A DNA stretch of 64,000 nucleotides from Escherichia coli (GTDB lineage Bacteria; Pseudomonadota; Gammaproteobacteria; Enterobacterales; Enterobacteriaceae): assembly GCF_044324785.1 (NCBI RefSeq), contig NZ_CP172127.1, one strand, 5' to 3'. The notes under the pieces were generated by a model. The model did not search any database. It saw only the letters and a program-made list of their open reading frames with translations, and was not told the origin of the DNA. A program made the position numbers and the translations under genes. Positions 5,046 to 60,705 of the stretch are shown here, piece by piece (within the stretch, counting starts at the first letter, position 1; each line of letters opens with the position of its first letter).

Positions 5046-5282
5046 ATGGCCGGGCAATCAGATTACCTGCCGCCCGGCTTACCACACAACCGCGCCAAAT
5101 GGCCCCAGGAATACCAGCTTAAAGAGCACTACGACATGCGAGCGGCGACGCTGATCCGCCAACTCTTTGAGAAACGTATTCCGAGGGGAAGCGTGATTGA
5201 GCAAATCGGAATGACGCCGGATACGTACCGGGAATTTTTCAGAGAGCGTCTGAACTACTGGAGAGGGGTGATGGAGCAATGA
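5046..5282 (+). CDS. hypothetical protein (78 aa)
   Basis: tightly packed with neighbours in same orientation. Confidence 0.4.
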   Translation: MAGQSDYLPPGLPHNRAKWPQEYQLKEHYDMRAATLIRQLFEKRIPRGSVIEQIGMTPDTYREFFRERLNYWRGVMEQ

Positions 5283-5590
5283 AATACAAACGGTGGGTGC
5301 GTGCGGAAGTCGTAATCATCAAACAATGTGCGGGCAGCATGACAGTTGAACGTATAGGGCAGCTTATTGGAAGAACCGGTGCAGCGGTACGCACAAAAGC
5401 GCGCGAGCTGAAAATCTGTATGTATCTGCGGGGTAATTATCACCAGTCAGCAAAATACTGCCAGGAGGATATCGAGCTGGCAAGGGAATTACATCAGTCG
5501 GGTATTAATCGCCAGGATATCGCAGAAAAACTCGAAATGCCGATCGGAGCGGTGAATCAGTTTGTTTATTTTGAGCGGAGGATTTCATGA
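5279..5590 (+). CDS. hypothetical protein, possible HTH DNA-binding (103 aa)
   Basis: overlapping start/stop with neighbours; two HTH-like segments. Confidence 0.4.
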   Translation: MKYKRWVRAEVVIIKQCAGSMTVERIGQLIGRTGAAVRTKARELKICMYLRGNYHQSAKYCQEDIELARELHQSGINRQDIAEKLEMPIGAVNQFVYFERRIS

Positions 5591-5811
5591 AAGAACTTTT
5601 TCTGGCATTTGTGCCCCGGTTTATTAATGACCAGATCGCACTGACTGATAATGGTGAACAATATGAAATTGCCTGCAGCATGGTGGATGTGAATCCGGGC
5701 GAACGGTATGACGCGATGTGTGACCTGAAAATATTCACCTGGCTGGGTTGGGCCATTCCGTGTGGAGAACCAACAAATATTCGCCCGTTTGAGGGCAGGG
5801 AGGCTGTATGA
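5587..5811 (+). CDS. hypothetical protein (74 aa)
   Basis: ORF; stop overlaps a further 38-aa Cys-containing small ORF starting at about 5808. Confidence 0.4.
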   Translation: MKELFLAFVPRFINDQIALTDNGEQYEIACSMVDVNPGERYDAMCDLKIFTWLGWAIPCGEPTNIRPFEGREAV

Positions 5812-6220: not shown

Positions 6221-6312
6221 ATTGACTTAGAAAAAGCCCGGGGCTATAGTTTCCGCGCAGCCGCAAAATCGGTTGCCGGGATTGGCGTCCCGGATATCTA
6301 AGTGACGCATAG

Positions 6313-6331
6313 CCGCGTTAGCGGTTTTTTT
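6313..6331 (+). terminator. putative intrinsic terminator
   Basis: ccgcgttagcgg hairpin followed by a T7 run. Confidence 0.45.
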
Positions 6332-6444
6332 ATGTGTTAGGCACGGCCACATTCGCATTATGGTGGGCTGTGTGGGGGCTTCTGCGGAAGCGCCGGGTTC
6401 ACTTAGCCGGTTACGCCAACCCTGCACAGTTCACCACCAGATGA

Positions 6445-7137
6445 TTGGCGTCGCTGGTGGTGATGAAAAAAACACTAAGTGAGGCCACTGCGATGACAAT
6501 CCAAATATCTGCGGAATCCCTTTCTCCGCTACATCATAACCAACTTCCCGTCATCACTACTGAATTGCTTGCCAGTTTGTATGGCACGGAAGTAAATGGT
6601 ATCCAGCAAAACTTCAAGCGCAACATCGCCAGATTTGTCGTAGGAAAGCATTTTTTTAAGCTGGAAGGTAATGAATTACGCGACTTCAAAAACAGACTGA
6701 CAGATAGTCAGTCAGTTGCTAAACATACCCGATCCCTCATTCTCTGGACAGAACGCGGCGCAGCTCGCCATGCCAAAATGCTGGAAACAGAACAGGCCTG
6801 GGAAGTTTTCGAAAAGCTGGAAGATTGTTATTTTAGCCAGCGTCCAGAGAGGCGGAGTACAACTACCGATGACCGTACTCCCTTACGTGATGCCGTTAAT
6901 ATGCTGGTCGGTAAGAAAGGCATGATGTATCCCGATGCCTACACCATGATTCATCAACGCTTCGCCGTCTCTCACATAGAACAACTGTCACAGACGCAAA
7001 TGTTAGAGGCGATTGAATACATCCACTGCCTGCTACTCGATGAAAATCAACCAACCATTCCAGATCACCACTATCAAAAATGGAAAAGTGACCAGAATGC
7101 GCCATGTTGCCAAAGGCGAACATCTGATGACCTTTGA
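6445..7137 (+). CDS. antirepressor-like protein with ORF6N-type N-terminal domain
   Basis: ELLASLYGTEVNGIQQNFKRNIARFVVGKHFFKLEGNELRDF pattern; C-terminal 30 aa look unnatural, possible frameshift into 7013..7270. Confidence 0.5.
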   Translation: MASLVVMKKTLSEATAMTIQISAESLSPLHHNQLPVITTELLASLYGTEVNGIQQNFKRNIARFVVGKHFFKLEGNELRDFKNRLTDSQSVAKHTRSLILWTERGAARHAKMLETEQAWEVFEKLEDCYFSQRPERRSTTTDDRTPLRDAVNMLVGKKGMMYPDAYTMIHQRFAVSHIEQLSQTQMLEAIEYIHCLLLDENQPTIPDHHYQKWKSDQNAPCCQRRTSDDL

Positions 7138-7270: not shown

Positions 7271-7300
7271 CAGGTTGAATGTTTGGCGCGGTTATACTCT

Positions 7301-7377
7301 ATTTGCGCTTAAAAAGGTATTTAGTCACAACCAGCACGAGGCCGAATACTCTGTCAAAGTACCGCCCATGTAAAACT
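7301..7377. repeat. direct repeat copy A (~77 bp), degenerate copy of the 3' end of gene 10899..11504
   Basis: about 92 percent identical to 10901..10978 with a 1-nt indel. Confidence 0.8.
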
Positions 7378-7447
7378 GTAACGTATGTACTTGATGACTA
7401 AGCTGGCACCAGGTTAACACCAGGCGCCAGCTTGAAGGAAACTTCAG

Positions 7448-8371
7448 TTATTGGTTTCTGAGGAAAGCGATTCTTGAAAGGGTCATTTGCGTCTGGCAGT
7501 CGACCATTTTCTTGACTTCAGCATCTGTTCCCTGCATTGAAACTTTACCGCACATAGCATCCTTAGTTTTGATCCACTGACGCTGAGAAGGCAGCAAATC
7601 TTTTTTCTTCGCCGGGGTTAACTTGCTCCAGACGGTACTCAAATCAGAGTCGGCATTCGCAAATGCCATTCGGGACTGATCAAGGCTGTCAGCTTTTTGT
7701 GGCTGAAGTTGTGCCTGTCTCTCTATTTGCTTCTCCGCCTCATACTTAGCCTGTTCCTGCGCCCTGAGTTGCACCTGTTGTTCCGCTTCAATTTGGCTCT
7801 GTTGGGCATCCTTAGCCTGCTGGATTTTCTGCTGCTCAACGATCGGGTTGATAATAGAAAGTGATGTCAGTAAAGCGGCGCCCACTGATATCGGATTATC
7901 AGAAGAGGTTTTTACAAAAACGTTTTTCTGATCGTCGGTCGCCTGCACGGTGTAGGTGATACGTTTGGAAAAGGCGTTTGCGTTGTTCTCCAAAAACAGG
8001 CTTTCCATTTGCTTGTCGAGATTACGATTAAAATTCTTTCTGTAATCATCAGAAAGCTGGACGTATTCGTTCGCAGGTAGAGTCATCGTCACGGTCCCTT
8101 CACAAGTTTTCATTGTGCTGCCCGTGTCACTTGATGTTGTGGAGATTTCAGAGATGGCTAGTTTGATCTTGTCCAATGTGCTTCGTTTGGTCTGATTAGT
8201 GACATCAGGGTATTTATCGACCTGTTCAGAGAGTCCTTCATAAGCAGATTTTTTTAATAAATCCATAAGCGCTGACTGGGTTATTTCCGAAGAACAACCG
8301 ATCACATCTTTTTTGTTATCACAGCCTGTAAGGGCAATGGCGAGTAAGAGTACTGAGTATTTTAATCTCAT
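7448..8371 (-). CDS. lipoprotein with C-terminal DUF1311 (LprI-like) domain
   Basis: lipobox LTGC after signal peptide; Gln-rich coiled coil; C-terminal QRQWIKTKDAMCG...DCQTQMTLSRIAFL pattern. Confidence 0.55.
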   Translation of the reverse strand: MRLKYSVLLLAIALTGCDNKKDVIGCSSEITQSALMDLLKKSAYEGLSEQVDKYPDVTNQTKRSTLDKIKLAISEISTTSSDTGSTMKTCEGTVTMTLPANEYVQLSDDYRKNFNRNLDKQMESLFLENNANAFSKRITYTVQATDDQKNVFVKTSSDNPISVGAALLTSLSIINPIVEQQKIQQAKDAQQSQIEAEQQVQLRAQEQAKYEAEKQIERQAQLQPQKADSLDQSRMAFANADSDLSTVWSKLTPAKKKDLLPSQRQWIKTKDAMCGKVSMQGTDAEVKKMVDCQTQMTLSRIAFLRNQ

Positions 8372-8996
8372 GAATTCCCTTTAGAGTAAGGATTGGTTTT
8401 TAAGACGCGGTCTGTAATCAGTTCCGAGAGCTACAGTAAACAACGCTGAGCACTGAACGCATCACAGGCAAGGTAAAGGCGATATCGGCAAAGGCTGTGA
8501 AACCTTTAATTCAACAGATGGAAACGGTATGCGCAGGATCCTGTAACGACGCTCCCAAAACCGGAAACCTGTAAGGCATGTTTTCGCTGCTGAACTTAAT
8601 ATACGAACCTGCACTATCATGAACATATTTTATATCGTTATACCCCGAGTGATTGTGCCCGGCAATGGATAGTGTCCTGGAGGAACTATTTCTACTGTAA
8701 AAGGTAGACATTTAATTTCAGTGTGGAATTATTCCCTGCTGTTAATAACCATGGCTCTATATGGCACCGAGCGGACTAGTTAACTTGCCTGAAAGCCGCT
8801 ATGAGTGAGGAGCGAATATTGGCACGAGAGGATACCTGAACCATTTTTTGGACATGCGCTAAAAGCGAATGATTAGTTTTATCGGAATATTTACAGTATA
8901 CTTACAAGGCAAGCTTGGCGTGCCGTCTTGGGCGAGATTGCTTAAATTATTTTGTGGATATATCATTCAAACAAAAGATAATAAAATGAGGTTGTT

Positions 8997-9398: not shown

Positions 9399-10064
9399 AT
9401 GAAAGCCGACAACTTAAGAATTATAGAGAATGGCAAATATGTTTTCGATATGTTCTTGGATACTGGTGAATTTTACTATACAAGTCATGCCTTTGACACG
9501 AGAGAAGATGCAAAAAGCTGGATGGAAGAATGGCAGATTTGGGCAAATAATGTATCGAGTGGGAAAGTAAGTAGTATTTATTATATTTTACAAGTGCCTG
9601 ATACTTGGGCCGGTTCTTCAGATAAAAATAACCCTTACTCGGGACTTTATGTGAAAATAGGGCGTTCCAATAATGTGCTAAAAAGGTTGTCTAACCTGCA
9701 GACAGGTGCATTTGGTCAATTAATATTACACGCTTTGGAACCTGGTGGTTCAGAAAAAGAAAACTATCTTCATGAAAAATTTAGCAACGAAAGACGTCAA
9801 GGTGAATGGTTTGTTTGTACTAAGGAACTTACCAAGCATATATTTACAACATGGTTTAAAAACAAAATGCTCCCACCAGAACATCAAATAAAAATAATGC
9901 AGCTCGCAGAAAGAATAGGTATTTATTCGCATGTTCATACACTAATGGGGGGGAAGCCAGACTTAGTAAACCCATCTATTAGTGAACCTTGGGAATGCGA
10001 AAAATATGTTTTGGTTGATATGATTTATAGCTCTTTAGCAAAGCAAGTTAATCATAAAAAATAA
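9399..10064 (+). CDS. T5orf172 (MUG113, GIY-YIG-like) domain protein
   Basis: YVKIGRSNNVLKRLSNLQTG ... LHEKFSNERRQGEWF matches the T5orf172 signature; unknown flanking regions. Confidence 0.6.
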   Translation: MKADNLRIIENGKYVFDMFLDTGEFYYTSHAFDTREDAKSWMEEWQIWANNVSSGKVSSIYYILQVPDTWAGSSDKNNPYSGLYVKIGRSNNVLKRLSNLQTGAFGQLILHALEPGGSEKENYLHEKFSNERRQGEWFVCTKELTKHIFTTWFKNKMLPPEHQIKIMQLAERIGIYSHVHTLMGGKPDLVNPSISEPWECEKYVLVDMIYSSLAKQVNHKK

Positions 10065-10898: not shown

Positions 10899-11504
10899 TT
10901 ACTTGCGTTTAAAAAGGTATTTTGTCACGACCAGCACGAGGCCGAATACCTCTGTCAAAGTACCGCCCATGTACAACTGGAGCGTTAAGTCTTTAAATAC
11001 AAGCCATTCAGCACCAGTGGCAAAAAATACACCATTCATTATCAAAAGCTGGCAAGCAAGGATAATAAGGAACCATTTGCCATAGCGTTTTTTTAGATCG
11101 ATTTCAGCTTCAAAATCTTTGTTGTTGAGTTGTTTGCGCTCATGCTCAGTATCAAGTGAATTCACCTGTTTCACAGATGTGAACTCGGTCAAGATTTTAC
11201 TCTCAGTACGGGTGACTTGTTGAGAGGGGGTAGGAATTGGAATTCTTTTGATTGACGCAGCTACAGCCATTTTGCGAGCTTCGGCAGCTCTTTTTCTGGC
11301 TATTCCGTGAATACGGGCAGACGGTTTTTTTGGAGCATGCGAAACCTTTGTCTGAGGTGAAGTTTCGTCAGGAGACTGAACCGGAGTTTCATCCTCCTCC
11401 GGCTCAACCTCTTCTGCTAACTGACGGTGTAGGTTGAGGGAATCCTTCAGTCGGCGTGCAACTTCCTGTTTGAAACGGCTGTTAAAATCGTCATCCGATG
11501 GCAT
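10899..11504 (-). CDS. membrane-anchored protein (charged N-terminal region, two C-terminal TM helices), partner of ImmA-like peptidase
   Basis: start 9 nt after peptidase stop, RBS inside peptidase 3' end; hydrophobic segments WFLIILACQLLIMNGVFFATGA and LVLVVTKYLF. Confidence 0.55.
   Translation of the reverse strand: MPSDDDFNSRFKQEVARRLKDSLNLHRQLAEEVEPEEDETPVQSPDETSPQTKVSHAPKKPSARIHGIARKRAAEARKMAVAASIKRIPIPTPSQQVTRTESKILTEFTSVKQVNSLDTEHERKQLNNKDFEAEIDLKKRYGKWFLIILACQLLIMNGVFFATGAEWLVFKDLTLQLYMGGTLTEVFGLVLVVTKYLFKRK
10901..10978. repeat. direct repeat copy B (~78 bp), coding for the C-terminus of 10899..11504
   Basis: pairs with 7301..7377. Confidence 0.8.
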
Positions 11505-11513
11505 TCTAAAGCG

Positions 11514-12002
11514 TTACCCCAACCTCAAGTTCTTTAAACGATAAGTCATCGCATCGTCAGATACGCCAAAATGATGCGCCATTATATAACTTGGTTGGCC
11601 GTCAGCGTGCAGTTTTCTGACCTCATCTACCGGCATCAGAAGTTCTGCTGCGAACTTGTTCGCAAAAATTTCATCAGGATGCGTTCCGGCGCTTGCGGTT
11701 TCGCCACGTAAATCAACGTACTCATATTCATCGCTATGCGATGCTTGCCGGGCGATGTAATGCCCCAACTCATGCCCACATGAAAAACGTTGACGAACTT
11801 TGTTGTCATCACTGTTTAGAAAGATCGCTGGATCTTGATCTTTTTGTTTAATCAGTGCGCCAGAAACTTTCCCAGGAAGATCGGTAATAAAAACATCTAA
11901 TCCCATGTCGTGAGCAATTTTCGCTGGATCAACAGGGAAACCACGCCCGCACCAGAACGTGTCCAGCACTCGCCGGGCGTGCTCTCTTGGGTTGGTAGCC
12001 AT
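11514..12002 (-). CDS. ImmA/IrrE-family zinc metallopeptidase (DUF955)
   Basis: HELGHY zinc-binding motif and downstream EIFANKFAAELLMP segment. Confidence 0.7.
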   Translation of the reverse strand: MATNPREHARRVLDTFWCGRGFPVDPAKIAHDMGLDVFITDLPGKVSGALIKQKDQDPAIFLNSDDNKVRQRFSCGHELGHYIARQASHSDEYEYVDLRGETASAGTHPDEIFANKFAAELLMPVDEVRKLHADGQPSYIMAHHFGVSDDAMTYRLKNLRLG

Positions 12003-15671: not shown

Positions 15672-15935
15672 GAATCAGGAAAAATCATGTCTGAACCTCT
15701 AACCGCTGGCGTTGCTGCTGGCTCGGCGGGGGTGACGTTTGCTGCGTTATTTCCTGAGGCAACACCTGCAGTGATGATCTGTGCGCTGGCAGGCGCAGCT
15801 CTCTATGTGTTGTCGTCCGGGCAGCATCGATTCTGGAAGCAGGTTAGACTGGCCCCCTGAATCTCCAGACAACCAATATCACTTAAATAAGTGATAGTCT
15901 TAATACTAGTTTTTAGACTAGTCATTGGAGAGCAG

Positions 15936-16301
15936 ATGATTGATGTCTTAGGACCGGAGAAACGCAGACGGCGTACTACACAGGAAAAGATCGCTATTGT
16001 TCAGCAGAGTTTTGAACCGGGAATGACGGTCTCCCTTGTTGCCCGGCAACACGGTGTGGCAGCCAGCCAGTTATTTCTCTGGCGCAAGCAATACCAGGAG
16101 GGAAGTCTTACTGCTGTGGCCGCAGGAGAGCAGGTCGTTCCTGCCTCTGAACTTGCTGCTGCCATGAAGCAGATTAAAGAACTCCAGCGCCTGCTCGGCA
16201 AAAAAACGATGGAAAATGAACTCCTTAAAGAAGCCGTTGAATACGGGCGTGCAAAAAAGTGGATAGCGCACGCGCCCTTATTGCCCGGGGATGGGGAGTA
16301 A
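15936..16301 (+). CDS. insC: IS2 transposase OrfA (InsC)
   Basis: [53 protein letters not shown]. Confidence 0.9.
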
Positions 16302-17164
16302 GCTTAGTCAGCCGTTGTCTCCGGGTGTCGCGTGCGCAGTTGCACGTAATTCTCAGACGAACCGATGACTGGAAAGATGGTCGCCGCAGCCGTCACTCAG
16401 ATGATACGGATGTGCTTCTCCGTATACACCATGTTATCGGAGAGCTGCCCACGTATGGTTATCGTCGGGTATGGGCGCTGCTTCGCAGACAGGCCGAACT
16501 TGATGGTATGCCTGCGATCAATGCCAAACGTGTTTACCGGATCATGCGCCAGAATGCGCTGTTGCTTGAGCGAAAAACCGCTGTACCGCCATCGAAACGG
16601 GCACATACTGGCAAAGTGGCCGTGAAAGAAAGCAATCAACGATGGTGCTCTGACGGGTTCGAGTTCCGCTGTGATAACGGAGAAAAACTGCGAGTCACGT
16701 TCGCGCTGGACTGCTGTGACCGTGAGGCACTGCACTGGGCAGTCACTACGGGCGGCTTCGACAGTGAAACAGTACAGGACGTAATGCTGGGAGCGGTGGA
16801 ACGCCGCTTCGGCAACGAGCTTCCGGCGTCTCCAGTAGAGTGGCTGACGGATAATGGTTCATGCTACCGGGCTAATGAAACACGGCAGTTTGCCCGGATG
16901 TTGGGGCTTGAACCGAAGAACACGGCGGTGCGGAGTCCGGAGAGTAACGGCATAGCAGAGAGCTTCGTGAAAACGATAAAGCGTGACTACATCAGTATCA
17001 TGCCTAAACCAGACGGGTTAACGGCAGCAAAGAACCTTGCAGAGGCGTTCGAGCATTATAACGAATGGCATCCGCATAGTGCACTGGGTTATCGCTCGCC
17101 ACGGGAATATCTGCGGCAGCAGGCCAGTAATGGGTTAAGTGATAACAGGTGTCTGGAAATATAG
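16259..17164 (+). CDS. insD: IS2 transposase OrfB (InsD)
   Basis: 301-aa DDE transposase overlapping insC in -1 frame. Confidence 0.9.
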
Positions 17165-17405
17165 GGGCAAATCCACAGGTTATTTTCGCACTCATTTCGT
17201 TTGTTGGCGGTGTGTATTGCGCTGAGACAGCATCAGCCATCATTACCGGTATTCTGAACGCGGTGCTGAGTCACCTGAACCCTCCCGTAACAGTAAAAGT
17301 CTCTCCCGCCATTGGTGCACTGGTTGCATCAGTAATCAGCGTTACATCACTGTTGCGGATCATGTCACAAGCTCGTTTATGGAAATCAGATAAGGGGATG
17401 AAATA

Positions 17406-17678
17406 ATGACCCTGCACTCTGTCCTCATTAATGCCAATGCAATTATCTGTCTGATGCTGGCACTGCGGTTGATGTTTTTTCAAAAAACAGGCCGCTATCG
17501 TTTTTTCATCTCACTAACTGCTTACCTGGCGATTCTGTCTGCTGCGTGGATAGCCCTACGAATTTTTTATGGGAAATATACGCAGGTTGATCCCGCAGAG
17601 TTCTTTCTCAACCTCACCATCTGTATTGCTGTCTGGCGGGCACGAGGGAATATTTCAAAAATAACAGGAGACAGGTAA
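17406..17678 (+). CDS. small membrane protein, holin/antiholin-like
   Basis: 90 aa with two hydrophobic helices; start overlaps the disrupted holin stop (ATAATGA). Confidence 0.45.
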   Translation: MTLHSVLINANAIICLMLALRLMFFQKTGRYRFFISLTAYLAILSAAWIALRIFYGKYTQVDPAEFFLNLTICIAVWRARGNISKITGDR

Positions 17679-18160
17679 TGACGGATCCTAAATGGCTAAT
17701 TGAGGCTCGAAAAAACCTCGGCATTCGGGAAATGAAAGGGAAGCAACATGCTGCAGAAATTGTGCAGTACTGGAAAGATATCAAACGCGGCGGCATTAAG
17801 GATGACGAAACACCGTGGTGCTCCGCCTTCACAGGAGCAATGCTGGAACGTGCAGGTATTCGCTCAACGCGTTTTGAGTCTGCGAATTCTTATCTCGATT
17901 GGGGTAATGAACTGAAGGAACCCGCCTATGGATGCATTGCTATTCTGTCTCGGTCTGGCGGTGGTCACGTCGGCTTTGTTGTCGGGAAAAATGCCGCCGG
18001 GGATTTAATGATTTTGGGGGGCAACCAGGCAGATGAAGTAAATATCAAAGCTTTTCCGAGCTCACGAGTTACCGGCTATCGCTGGCCTGTTGATGTGCTG
18101 GATGTGCCGTCAACCTTGCCGCTGCTGATGGGAGGTGAATTATCAACTTCGGAGCAGTAA
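17678..18160 (+). CDS. putative endolysin, CHAP/NlpC-P60-like cell-wall peptidase (TIGR02594-type)
   Basis: ETPWCSAF Cys and GGGHVGFVVG His motifs; position after holin genes. Confidence 0.55.
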   Translation: MTDPKWLIEARKNLGIREMKGKQHAAEIVQYWKDIKRGGIKDDETPWCSAFTGAMLERAGIRSTRFESANSYLDWGNELKEPAYGCIAILSRSGGGHVGFVVGKNAAGDLMILGGNQADEVNIKAFPSSRVTGYRWPVDVLDVPSTLPLLMGGELSTSEQ

Positions 18161-24023: not shown

Positions 24024-25594
24024 CTGCTCCACAGCAGCTGCTCGGGCCTGACGGTAAAACGCCACTACGCCGTTTTGCGGGGTATAACGGCGGCGGTCCC
24101 GGTTTCGGTGGCCAGCTGATTGACTGGAATGCGCCACAGCAAAGCGCCGATGCGGCACTGCTGCCTAATTTTTATCGCGGTAACGCGCGAGCAGACGATC
24201 TCGTTCGCAATAACGGTGTCGCGTCGAACGCCGTGCAGCTGCACCAGGATCATATTGTCGGCAATCTGTTTAAATTGAGTTATCGCCCTAACTGGCGTTA
24301 CCTAGGGATATCTCGCGAGGACGCCAGGGCGCTGGCGCGTGACGTTGAGGTCGCGTGGACTGAATACGCTGAGGACCCTCACTGCACGATTGATATCGAG
24401 CGGAAACGGACGTTCACAATGATGATCCGCGAGGGTGTGGCCACTCACGCGTTTAACGGTGAAACCTGCGTACAACCGGTCTGGGAAAGCAGTACCGGTA
24501 GCGTTTTTCGGACGCGATTCAAAATGGTTTCGCCGAAACGGATTCGAAATCCGGGTTACGCAGCTGACACCCGATTTCGCCGCGCCGGTGTTGATATCGA
24601 TAAAAATGGAGCCGCAGTGGGCTACTGGATAGCCGAGGACACCTATCCACTCGGTGGAATCGGCAAGTGCCGGCGTATACCAGCGCAGCTCAGCAGCGGC
24701 AGACACGCATTCATTCACATATTCGAGCCGCTCGAGGACGGACAGACCCGCGGAGATAACATTTTCTACAGCGTCATGGAGCGCCTGAAAATGCTCGACA
24801 CACTGCAGCAAACACAGCTGCAGAGCGCGATTGTTAAGGCCATGTACGCCGCGACAATCGAATCAGAGCTCGATAGTCAGCAAGCGTTTGAATATATCGC
24901 CGGCGCGGGTACTGATATCGACTCGAACCCACTGAATTCGTTTATTCAGAGTTACGTGACGTACTACAACGGCGCAAATATCAAGCTCGGTGGTGTGAAA
25001 GTTCCTCATCTGCATCCCGGCGACAAACTCAGTTTACAGACCGCTCAGAATGCTGATGCTGGTTTTAGTTCACTGGAAAAATCACTCCTGCGTTACGTTG
25101 CAGCTGGCGTTGGCGCGTCATACGAAGAACTTAGCCGGGACTACAGCCAGGTCAGTTACTCCAGCGCCCGGGCCAGTGCTAACGTCAGCTGGCGATTTTT
25201 CATGGGGCGTCGACGTTTTATCGCCGCGCGACAGGCTTCGCTGATGTTCTGCTGCTGGTTTGAGGAGGCGCTGGCGCGCGGGATTATCACTCTGCCCCGC
25301 TCCGCGGTTCGGTCGTTTTACGAGGCGCGGAACTCCTGGACGAATGCCCTCTGGATCGGCGCTGGACGTATGGCCATCGATGGGCTGAAGGAGGTTCAGG
25401 AGAGCGCCATGAGAATCACGACCGGCCTCAGCACGTATCAGAACGAACTGGCGCTGCAGGGACAGGATTACGAGGAGGTTATGGAGCAACAGGAATACGA
25501 AATTCAGCGCCGGCGTGAAATGGGGCTGAGCGAACCGTCATGGTCTGTATCTCACTCCTCAAATACCAACGATAACGGCTGGGGAGGTAACTGA
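24020..25594 (+). CDS. portal protein (lambda gpB family)
   Basis: 524 aa, gene order and similarity to lambda B. Confidence 0.85.
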   Translation: MTAPQQLLGPDGKTPLRRFAGYNGGGPGFGGQLIDWNAPQQSADAALLPNFYRGNARADDLVRNNGVASNAVQLHQDHIVGNLFKLSYRPNWRYLGISREDARALARDVEVAWTEYAEDPHCTIDIERKRTFTMMIREGVATHAFNGETCVQPVWESSTGSVFRTRFKMVSPKRIRNPGYAADTRFRRAGVDIDKNGAAVGYWIAEDTYPLGGIGKCRRIPAQLSSGRHAFIHIFEPLEDGQTRGDNIFYSVMERLKMLDTLQQTQLQSAIVKAMYAATIESELDSQQAFEYIAGAGTDIDSNPLNSFIQSYVTYYNGANIKLGGVKVPHLHPGDKLSLQTAQNADAGFSSLEKSLLRYVAAGVGASYEELSRDYSQVSYSSARASANVSWRFFMGRRRFIAARQASLMFCCWFEEALARGIITLPRSAVRSFYEARNSWTNALWIGAGRMAIDGLKEVQESAMRITTGLSTYQNELALQGQDYEEVMEQQEYEIQRRREMGLSEPSWSVSHSSNTNDNGWGGN

Positions 25595-51881: not shown

Positions 51882-52447
51882 TATGTATTCCCTTGTGATT
51901 ATAATCTTCATGAATATATCAATAAGTGCCGTTATCCAAAAAAAAGCACATTTGGATACTATTCTATGAAGTTCATTTTATTTTAAGGATTACATGTAAC
52001 AAATGTATTTAAAAGATTTCAAAATGTTTCTAATCTATTTAATATAATTCAGAATTATGAATTCTAGATATAAATATTCATGATAATTATGAATATATAT
52101 CAATATGTTATGAGTTGATTGGAAAGATAGGAAGTATCAATGATTGCGGCGCTAAACGGCTGATGTGATCACGCGCACATTAATGAAGGCATAAAAAAAA
52201 GCCGGCATCATGCCGGCCCAAAAAATATAAACAAGACGATAAAAGGCTAATAACGGGGTTATCATGACACAGAAATCAAAAAAGGTATAATTGAATTCGC
52301 TGCTAATATATTGTTTAGGTGAATTAATAAAACCATTACCATAGATAATAATAAATCTTCATTGCTGTTTTTCCGGTAATTATTGCCGTTGCGCAAAAAT
52401 TATCTATTTGTTCAAAAAATGATTGAGTCTTGACTGGCTCATCCAAT

Positions 52448-60618: not shown

Positions 60619-60705
60619 AACACATCAGATTTCCTGGTGTAACGAATTTTTTAAGTGCTTCTTGCTTAAGCAAGTTTCATCCCGACCCCCTCAGGGTCGG
60701 GATTT
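60619..60705 (+). ncRNA. dsrA: small regulatory RNA DsrA
   Basis: aacacatcagatttcctggtgtaacgaattttttaagtgcttcttgcttaagcaagtttcatcccgaccccctcagggtcgggattt matches DsrA including its terminator hairpin. Confidence 0.9.

Follow-up and report, generated by a model that had tools for sequence, protein, structure and literature searches.

The sequence analyzed here is a 64,000-nucleotide (nt) stretch of the Escherichia coli contig NZ_CP172127.1 (assembly GCF_044324785.1), hereafter the window, and the subject of this report is a lipoprotein gene that a lambdoid prophage in that window carries in the interval from its replication genes to the nin/Q region, where it lies antisense to all of its phage neighbours. 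An earlier note, made from the DNA letters, had described a prophage lipoprotein with a C-terminal domain of the DUF1311 (LprI-like) type at this position. Its coordinates, 7448–8371, proved exact for the open reading frame (ORF), to which we add the strand, minus, that it had left out, and the gene order, syntenic with that of an annotated lambdoid prophage, confirmed the prophage setting. The ORF starts at the ATG at 8371, ends in a stop codon at 7448–7450 and is the sole long ORF in the interval. It is real, far beyond chance, as judged from its match to phrog_5094 (E 6e-186), a family to which PHROGs assigns no function, from the 112 homologues that were found and from the ratio of nonsynonymous to synonymous substitution rates (dN/dS), which was 0.12–0.13 relative to the Citrobacter and Enterobacter copies and 0.08–0.11 when the N-domain, spacer and C-domain were each taken separately. 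At 0.12–0.13 for the gene as a whole, dN/dS shows it to be under purifying selection in prophage and chromosomal settings alike. In RefSeq, a 97–99% identical gene bears the name "lysozyme inhibitor LprI family protein". The gene is an uncharacterized and fairly ordinary member of the known ScwA/DUF1311 family, already annotated in RefSeq and PHROGs. Its features are collected in Table 1.

Table 1. Features of the lipoprotein gene and its cassette, with coordinates in the window (aa, amino acids; CDS, coding sequence; CRISPR, clustered regularly interspaced short palindromic repeats; PAM, protospacer-adjacent motif).
Feature	Coordinates	Strand	Basis or remark
Full CDS of the ScwA-family lipoprotein (307 aa and stop codon)	7448..8371	minus	ORF list, Pfam PF07007, phrog_5094, RefSeq name
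Signal peptide and lipobox, residues 1–17, MRLKYSVLLLAIALTG-C	8321..8371	minus	regular expression and hydropathy
N-terminal alpha+beta domain, residues 24–160	7892..8302	minus	C26 and C90 conserved
Gln/Glu/Ala-rich helical spacer, residues 161–225	7697..7891	minus	composition, AlphaFold2 helix, length variation
DUF1311/LprI three-helix domain, residues 226–307, QRQWIK motif, C274/C292	7451..7696	minus	Pfam, Foldseek, ScwA similarity
Mobile cassette (gene with its own flanks), 1.2 kb	7402..8599	minus	blastn boundary versus Citrobacter
Conserved 5' non-coding region, including the invariant Shine-Dalgarno-plus-start block TAAAGGGAAnTnATG	8372..8599	minus	blastn boundary, copy alignment
3' hairpin, 11-bp outer stem, 16 nt after the stop codon	7401..7432	minus	RNA fold -28.2 kcal/mol, z -4.7
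Protospacer, 32/32 match to an E. coli type I-E CRISPR spacer	7867..7898	plus	ATG PAM at 7864–7866, immediately 5'
Protospacer, first 32 nt of the CDS, 32/32 match to a second E. coli type I-E CRISPR spacer	8340..8371	plus	ATG PAM at 8337–8339

The N-terminus of the protein has the features of a lipoprotein signal peptide, as the earlier note had proposed: a basic M-R-L-K start leads into a hydrophobic stretch (residues 6–16, mean Kyte-Doolittle value 2.3) and a lipobox, L14-T-G-C17, the cysteine of which is invariant in 25 of 25 orthologues. Next to Cys17 come Asp18-Asn19, and 16 of the 25 orthologues have Asp as the +2 residue. The N-terminal domain has an alpha+beta fold that is NTF2/cystatin-like, carries the loop motifs S-D-x-G-S-T-M-K-T-C and Y-T-V-Q-A-T-D-D, and is covered by no Pfam model either in this protein or in any of 42 family members. 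The Gln-rich segment that follows was also correctly recognized, with residues 161–225 comprising 26% Gln, 11% Glu and 14% Ala, and in the AlphaFold2 model (mean predicted local distance difference test score, pLDDT, of 83.5 overall) residues 160–221 form one unbroken helix. Its earlier description as a coiled coil could not be upheld, because there is no heptad pattern in the segment: hydrophobic residues occupied at most 32% of the a/d positions in every heptad register, and residues 178–225 are only 17% hydrophobic. Orthologues also vary in the length of the segment, by tens of residues, and it looks like a variable helical spacer.

Residues 226–304 match Pfam PF07007 (LprI/DUF1311) over profile positions 11–106 of 106 (E 4.3e-7), and the score of 30.7 bits exceeds the curated gathering cut-off of 22 bits, so that the profile search suggested earlier as a check identified the expected domain. 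Three helices are predicted for it by AlphaFold2 (residues 230–250, 253–274 and 283–305; pLDDT about 90), and Foldseek aligned it to 3gi7, a DUF1311 structure that has been solved, with a probability of 1.00 and a target-normalised template modelling (TM) score of 0.65 over 95 columns. Besides this match for the C-domain, the full model had only weak Foldseek matches in PDB and BFVD, and neither the full-length profile nor that of the N-domain gave anything but chance matches when PDB was searched by sequence. The QRQW ... CG ... DCQ pattern that had first drawn attention to DUF1311 is a genuine conserved feature, given that Q263-R264-Q265-W266, C274-G275 and C292 are invariant in the 25 orthologues. 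Across the 42 distant members there is no variation at C274 and W248 and almost none at Q263, W266 and C292.

To define the family, an exhaustive profile search was made in which representative clusters were counted at E<=1e-3; 530 clusters were obtained, 231 of them at E<=1e-10. Most members are lipoproteins of ~300 aa that consist of a lipobox, the N-domain, a variable helical linker and DUF1311. The N-domain has three signatures (C-[SG]-x-[ED] near the start, a D-P-N-S-T-K-x-x-C loop and a Y-x-x-Q-P-T-D-D loop), and that of DUF1311 is LLPxQRxWIKxK...C...C. These results define an unannotated but widespread N-domain (several hundred clusters) that always occurs with DUF1311 in lipoproteins. 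Three distant members were examined, and all three are standalone genes with unrelated neighbours.

The only member of this two-domain architecture for which there are experiments is ScwA (SL1344_0490) of Salmonella Typhimurium, a periplasmic protein of 275 aa with a C-terminal PF07007 domain and conserved cysteines at positions 30, 100, 237 and 259 (PMC7933661). The stability of ScwA is dependent on DsbA; ScwA increases how much of the lytic transglycosylase MltD is present, its prolonged overproduction leads to cell lysis, and deletion of scwA leaves lysozyme sensitivity unchanged (PMC7933661). For comparison with our protein, ScwA was rebuilt from primer-derived peptides and a frameshifted Salmonella allele located between copA and ybaP, which gave 272 aa versus the published 275, with the numbering after about residue 64 running 3 short. 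An alignment of the family profile to the rebuilt ScwA with hhalign extended over both domains (256 columns, probability 98.9%, E 1.9e-17), the two C-domains were 33% identical (E 5e-10), and C26, C90, C274 and C292 of the lipoprotein were in register with ScwA C30, C100, C237 and C259. Based on these alignments, the lipoprotein is assigned to the same two-domain family as ScwA, which is its closest characterized relative. Both proteins have a signal peptide, two conserved cysteines in the N-domain and two more in a C-terminal PF07007 domain, and both are periplasmic; by analogy with what is reported for ScwA, the two cysteine pairs of the lipoprotein are probably disulfides. The ScwA gene is fixed in the chromosome between copA and ybaP, whereas the gene described here is on a prophage.

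In view of this relationship, the name under which databases list the protein, "lysozyme inhibitor", probably misleads, because ScwA, the closest studied relative, tunes a wall-cutting enzyme and does not block lysozyme. The corresponding Pfam label of PF07007 is without experimental support (PMC7933661). The name is carried over from a different domain of the Mycobacterium tuberculosis protein LprI (Rv1541c), which is the source of the family name: in the account of LprI given in PMC7933661, its second domain, MliC, is sufficient for lysozyme resistance. As far as that account goes, LprI resembles our protein in being a lipoprotein with PF07007, but the MliC domain credited with inhibition is not in the lipoprotein described here, and DUF1311 is N-terminal in LprI versus C-terminal in our protein. 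No MliC/PliC (PF09864), Ivy (PF08816), PliI or PliG domain was identified in the lipoprotein, for which PF07007 was the sole Pfam match at E<=1; none of the 42 family members matches a lysozyme-inhibitor family; and the fold of the N-domain is not the eight-stranded MliC/PliC beta-barrel. The statement of the earlier note that LprI-type domains are associated with lysozyme inhibition is therefore weak, with the activity of LprI credited to MliC and the result for ScwA negative.

For the same reasons, we consider it quite unlikely that the lipoprotein sits in the membrane to inhibit animal lysozyme (c-type or g-type) and so shields the lysogen in its host. Such a function would agree with the RefSeq and Pfam names, with the location of the protein, a periplasmic lipoprotein as is MliC, and with the inhibition of lysozyme by M. 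tuberculosis LprI in the above account. It would also agree with the observation that an Enterobacter prophage with an orthologous lipoprotein gene also has, close to the terminase genes, one for an Ivy (PF08816) lysozyme inhibitor (positions 5178–5591 of that locus), so that phages do carry such cargo. However, it is opposed by the domain content and N-domain fold just described, by the assignment of LprI activity to MliC and the lack of a lysozyme phenotype in the scwA mutant (PMC7933661), and by the predicted inner-membrane location of the protein, which is distant from where lysozyme enters.

The gene is not confined to the prophage setting. DNA homology with a non-prophage chromosomal locus of Citrobacter (blastn, 87% identity) comprises the gene together with 228 nt upstream and 46 nt downstream, and these limits define the cassette in Table 1. 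Alignment of prophage and chromosomal copies revealed an invariant ribosome-binding and start region, TAAAGGGAA-n-T-n-ATG, and the 3' hairpin, which has no U-tract, is inside the block common to Citrobacter. A sigma-E-like motif, GGAACT...TCTTAA, was noticed by eye but was dropped as it has the wrong spacing and is not conserved. When 5,426 complete E. coli genomes were scanned for the cassette, with presence defined as coverage of at least 80%, matches were found in 575 genomes but only 438 of them were covered to that extent, always in the chromosome. The gene was absent from 50,697 isolated phage genomes as searched by megablast and tblastn. In Citrobacter freundii, the gene for an 88% identical protein is at a site outside any prophage, with a fec-type operon for iron transport on one side and MFS/amn genes (MFS, major facilitator superfamily) on the other; all four loci among the matches listed have this site, and a further 19 similar places lie outside that listing. 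The Proteus vulgaris copy is between mdtJI-like genes and ridA/dinG, and the Pantoea copy is between grpB and an epimerase gene. In prophages of the Enterobacter cloacae complex, an 84% identical protein is encoded in the same prophage slot as here, and the gene also fills that slot in the E. coli ST131 and RM9387 prophages.

The gene is accordingly a horizontally mobile, self-contained accessory unit (moron) of the lambdoid prophage and is not phage-specific, since it forms a discrete block that has a non-prophage counterpart in Citrobacter and recurs in the same slot of mosaic E. coli and Enterobacter prophages. Its flanks and orientation suggest that its expression may be independent of the lytic programme. 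Classical morons such as lambda Bor, phi80/N15 Cor and T5 Llp are likewise single genes in lambdoid prophages that have their own flanks and encode envelope lipoproteins, but they are not known to share sequence or fold similarity with our protein.

These observations bear on a further proposal of the earlier note, that the protein could modulate lysis by its own phage. One way would be to restrain the endolysin. The lysis of cells that overproduce ScwA could be taken in favour of such a role (PMC7933661), but we judge it very improbable. The gene has its own flanks and is transcribed opposite to the early and late genes of the phage, and the same cassette is found in prophages with GH19-type and T4-lysozyme-type endolysins as well as at non-phage loci. 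In this prophage, the gene in the endolysin slot (17678–18160) is not a lysozyme but is of the TIGR02594/CHAP-like kind, with a TIGR02594 match of 137 bits and a CHAP match that was sub-threshold only. A sequence search found no relative of solved structure for the product of that gene, and its endolysin type is unusual and poorly characterized.

With regard to function, we propose that the lipoprotein binds or modulates a periplasmic peptidoglycan glycosidase of the lysozyme-fold or lytic-transglycosylase type, either tuning an endogenous enzyme or sequestering a foreign one. We regard this proposal as having about an even chance of being correct; it is made because the data on ScwA and MltD and the data on isolated DUF1311 immunity proteins, considered below, both point in that direction. 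The protein would be exported by the Sec pathway, lipidated at Cys17 and oxidized by a DsbA-type enzyme. Aspartate at position +2 retains E. coli lipoproteins in the inner membrane by avoidance of the Lol pathway, and because the lipoprotein has Asp at this position, it is predicted to be kept on the periplasmic face of the inner membrane. The 62-residue helix could then place DUF1311 as far as ~9 nm from the membrane, in the direction of the peptidoglycan layer, where the domain may bind one or more glycosidases of the lysozyme or lytic-transglycosylase type. Binding would change wall cutting in the lysogen: a lytic transglycosylase of the cell itself could be stabilized or tuned, as MltD is by ScwA, or an enzyme coming from outside could be sequestered.

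Several points weigh against this proposal. The binding of a glycosidase is a step that we infer, unlike the signals for export and lipidation, the two-domain architecture, the family membership, the mobility and the purifying selection, which the analysis shows. The link between ScwA and MltD itself concerns protein amounts rather than direct contact (PMC7933661). ScwA also differs from our protein in ways that indicate that function may have diverged: it has an ordinary signal peptide (VSYA|G) with no lipobox cysteine and is soluble, in contrast to the lipobox and Asp+2 found here; it is without the ~60-residue Gln-rich helix (272–275 versus 307 aa); and its N-domain is only 21% identical to that of the lipoprotein, with a BLASTP E value of 0.21. 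Asp+2 is not universal, the residue being Asn or Gly in 9 of the 25 orthologues. A promoter scan detected no sigma-70 consensus upstream on the strand of the gene, so no promoter was identified, and no peptidoglycan hydrolase or type VI secretion system (T6SS) gene was a conserved neighbour in the nine contexts examined.

It is also conceivable, though in our estimation fairly unlikely, that the N-domain has a role unrelated to wall hydrolases, with a small molecule, a lipid or an envelope protein as its partner, and that DUF1311 serves as a generic helical module. The N-domain is the most conserved part of the protein and has the strongest family signature (the DPNSTK-x-x-C and QPTDD loops), NTF2-like folds often bind small ligands, and the genomic neighbourhoods give no hint of function. 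On the other hand, ScwA, the sole experimental case of the full architecture, points to peptidoglycan enzymes, and proteins that consist of DUF1311 only have been linked to wall hydrolases.

The latter proteins also raise the question of immunity. Etsi4 rescues the periplasmic toxicity of Etse4, a wall-targeting T6SS effector, and for other DUF1311 proteins, found next to lysozyme-like or LysM effectors, an immunity role is predicted. By extension, the lipoprotein may be an orphan immunity protein against T6SS muramidase or transglycosylase effectors of competitors, with the prophage protecting its lysogen, which we rate as unlikely. Its C-terminal helical domain is that of immunity proteins, cognate or predicted, that counter wall-targeting effectors acting in the periplasm; like them, the lipoprotein is directed to the periplasm, by its signal peptide and lipobox, and it is encoded by a mobile, patchily distributed single gene. 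However, DUF1311 immunity proteins are about 100–150 aa long and are without the N-domain or spacer (Etsi4 is a DUF1311-only protein of 149 aa), which makes the lipoprotein, with its extra conserved N-domain, twice the size of the known examples. Pairwise similarity between its DUF1311 and Etsi4 was not significant (E 0.12), and it is clearly closer to ScwA. The etsi4 gene is directly beside those for its effector and Hcp, and no effector, Hcp, VgrG or PAAR neighbour was present at the E. coli, Citrobacter, Proteus, Pantoea and Enterobacter loci or next to the three distant members. In Citrobacter, moreover, the copy is at one fixed site (four of four among the matches listed), like a resident gene.

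Superinfection exclusion was considered as well, with the lipoprotein blocking the wall-degrading enzymes of virions or the entry of DNA at the inner membrane, and appears to us rather improbable. The known exclusion factors Cor, Llp and Ltp are lipoproteins too, and the moron slot is near candidate defence cargo, namely a gene pair with a CapP-like ImmA peptidase, a GIY-YIG protein and an ORF6N protein that matches the PADLOC candidate system PDC-S05. For the lipoprotein itself there was no PADLOC match (E<=0.01) and no similarity to known exclusion proteins, and its PHROG family has no assigned function. Also unfavourable to an exclusion role are the stable chromosomal, non-phage copies in several genera and the absence of the gene from the sequenced phage genomes searched above.

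That invading phages do carry the gene is indicated from another direction. Two E. coli type I-E CRISPR spacers match it exactly (Table 1) and are therefore independent evidence that E. coli meets the gene on invading phage DNA. Spacers also account for part of the genome scan reported above: about 137 of the 575 E. coli cassette matches covered less than 80%, and six of six that were sampled were type I-E CRISPR spacers and not the gene. In one of these arrays, which is cas-proximal, spacer 6 matches the prophage portal gene (25415–25443) at 27 of 29 positions, which suggests past encounters with the phage family of this prophage.

A bolder form of our proposal would make the lipoprotein a phage-spread shield, in which a DUF1311 trap, anchored in the inner membrane and raised to the sacculus on a helical stalk of ~9 nm, neutralizes muramidase effectors of T6SSs or the enzymes with which superinfecting phages pierce the wall. 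We think this improbable; if true, it would constitute a new mechanism of lysogenic conversion or exclusion at the wall-penetration step, and the two CRISPR spacers would mark a contested mobile trait. Of the earlier interpretation as a whole, the prophage lipoprotein with a DUF1311 domain stands, the lysozyme premise is weak and a role in lysis by the resident phage is unlikely. The idea of a link between such domains and wall-cutting enzymes survives in a wider version, by way of the DUF1311 immunity proteins and the ScwA–MltD relationship.

The assignment has consequences for annotation and for experiment. About 8% of complete E. coli genomes, ST131 included, carry the gene under an unsupported "lysozyme inhibitor" name, which the literature already repeats as a putative virulence or immune-evasion trait; a literature search on LprI and prophage returned nothing on the lipoprotein itself. 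Placement in the ScwA family redirects experiments towards the control of peptidoglycan glycosidases. If the lipoprotein does alter the activity of a wall hydrolase, this would be a case in which a prophage retunes the homeostasis of the cell wall or protects the wall of its lysogen.

The surroundings of the cassette yielded several further observations. An ORF6N antirepressor-like gene (6445–7137, the PDC-S05 match mentioned above) lies on one side, with variable cargo on the other. Rfam matches at 6244–6441, upstream of the ORF6N gene, are to isrK (80 bits), C4 antisense RNA (74 bits) and its a1b1 target (53 bits), which together represent a c4-ant antisense immunity module of the P1/P7 type before an antirepressor-like gene. 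A direct repeat of ~86 bp (7300–7384 and 10900–10985), made up of two gap-free blocks of 50 and 36 nt that are each 92% identical, flanks 3.5 kb of cargo comprising the lipoprotein gene, a 65-aa ORF, the GIY-YIG/T5orf172 gene and a 134-aa ORF. In the left copy, the 3' end of a gene for a 201-aa protein (10899–11504) is repeated, which suggests how the cargo block came to be inserted. The protein with the GIY-YIG/T5orf172 (MUG113) domain is encoded at 9399–10064, adjoining the lipoprotein gene; in the ST131 prophage, its place is taken by an unrelated 232-aa hypothetical protein, and the slot is therefore a cargo hotspot. On the minus strand, as is the lipoprotein gene, 10899–12002 contains a gene pair that may be a regulatory or defence module: one product is an ImmA/IrrE M78 peptidase (PADLOC CapP model, E 1.6e-25), and the other is the 201-aa protein, which has a hydrophobic C-terminus and no family match.

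Further along the prophage, comparison with an otherwise syntenic prophage revealed that the first holin gene is broken by an IS3-family insertion sequence (~15847–17175, with HTH_Tnp_1 and rve ORFs at 15891–17164), and as a result the prophage may be defective in lysis. Lastly, the host small RNA genes rseX and dsrA, which mark the flanking chromosome as that of E. coli, are in the right-hand part of the window, at 52194–52283 and 60619–60705, respectively.

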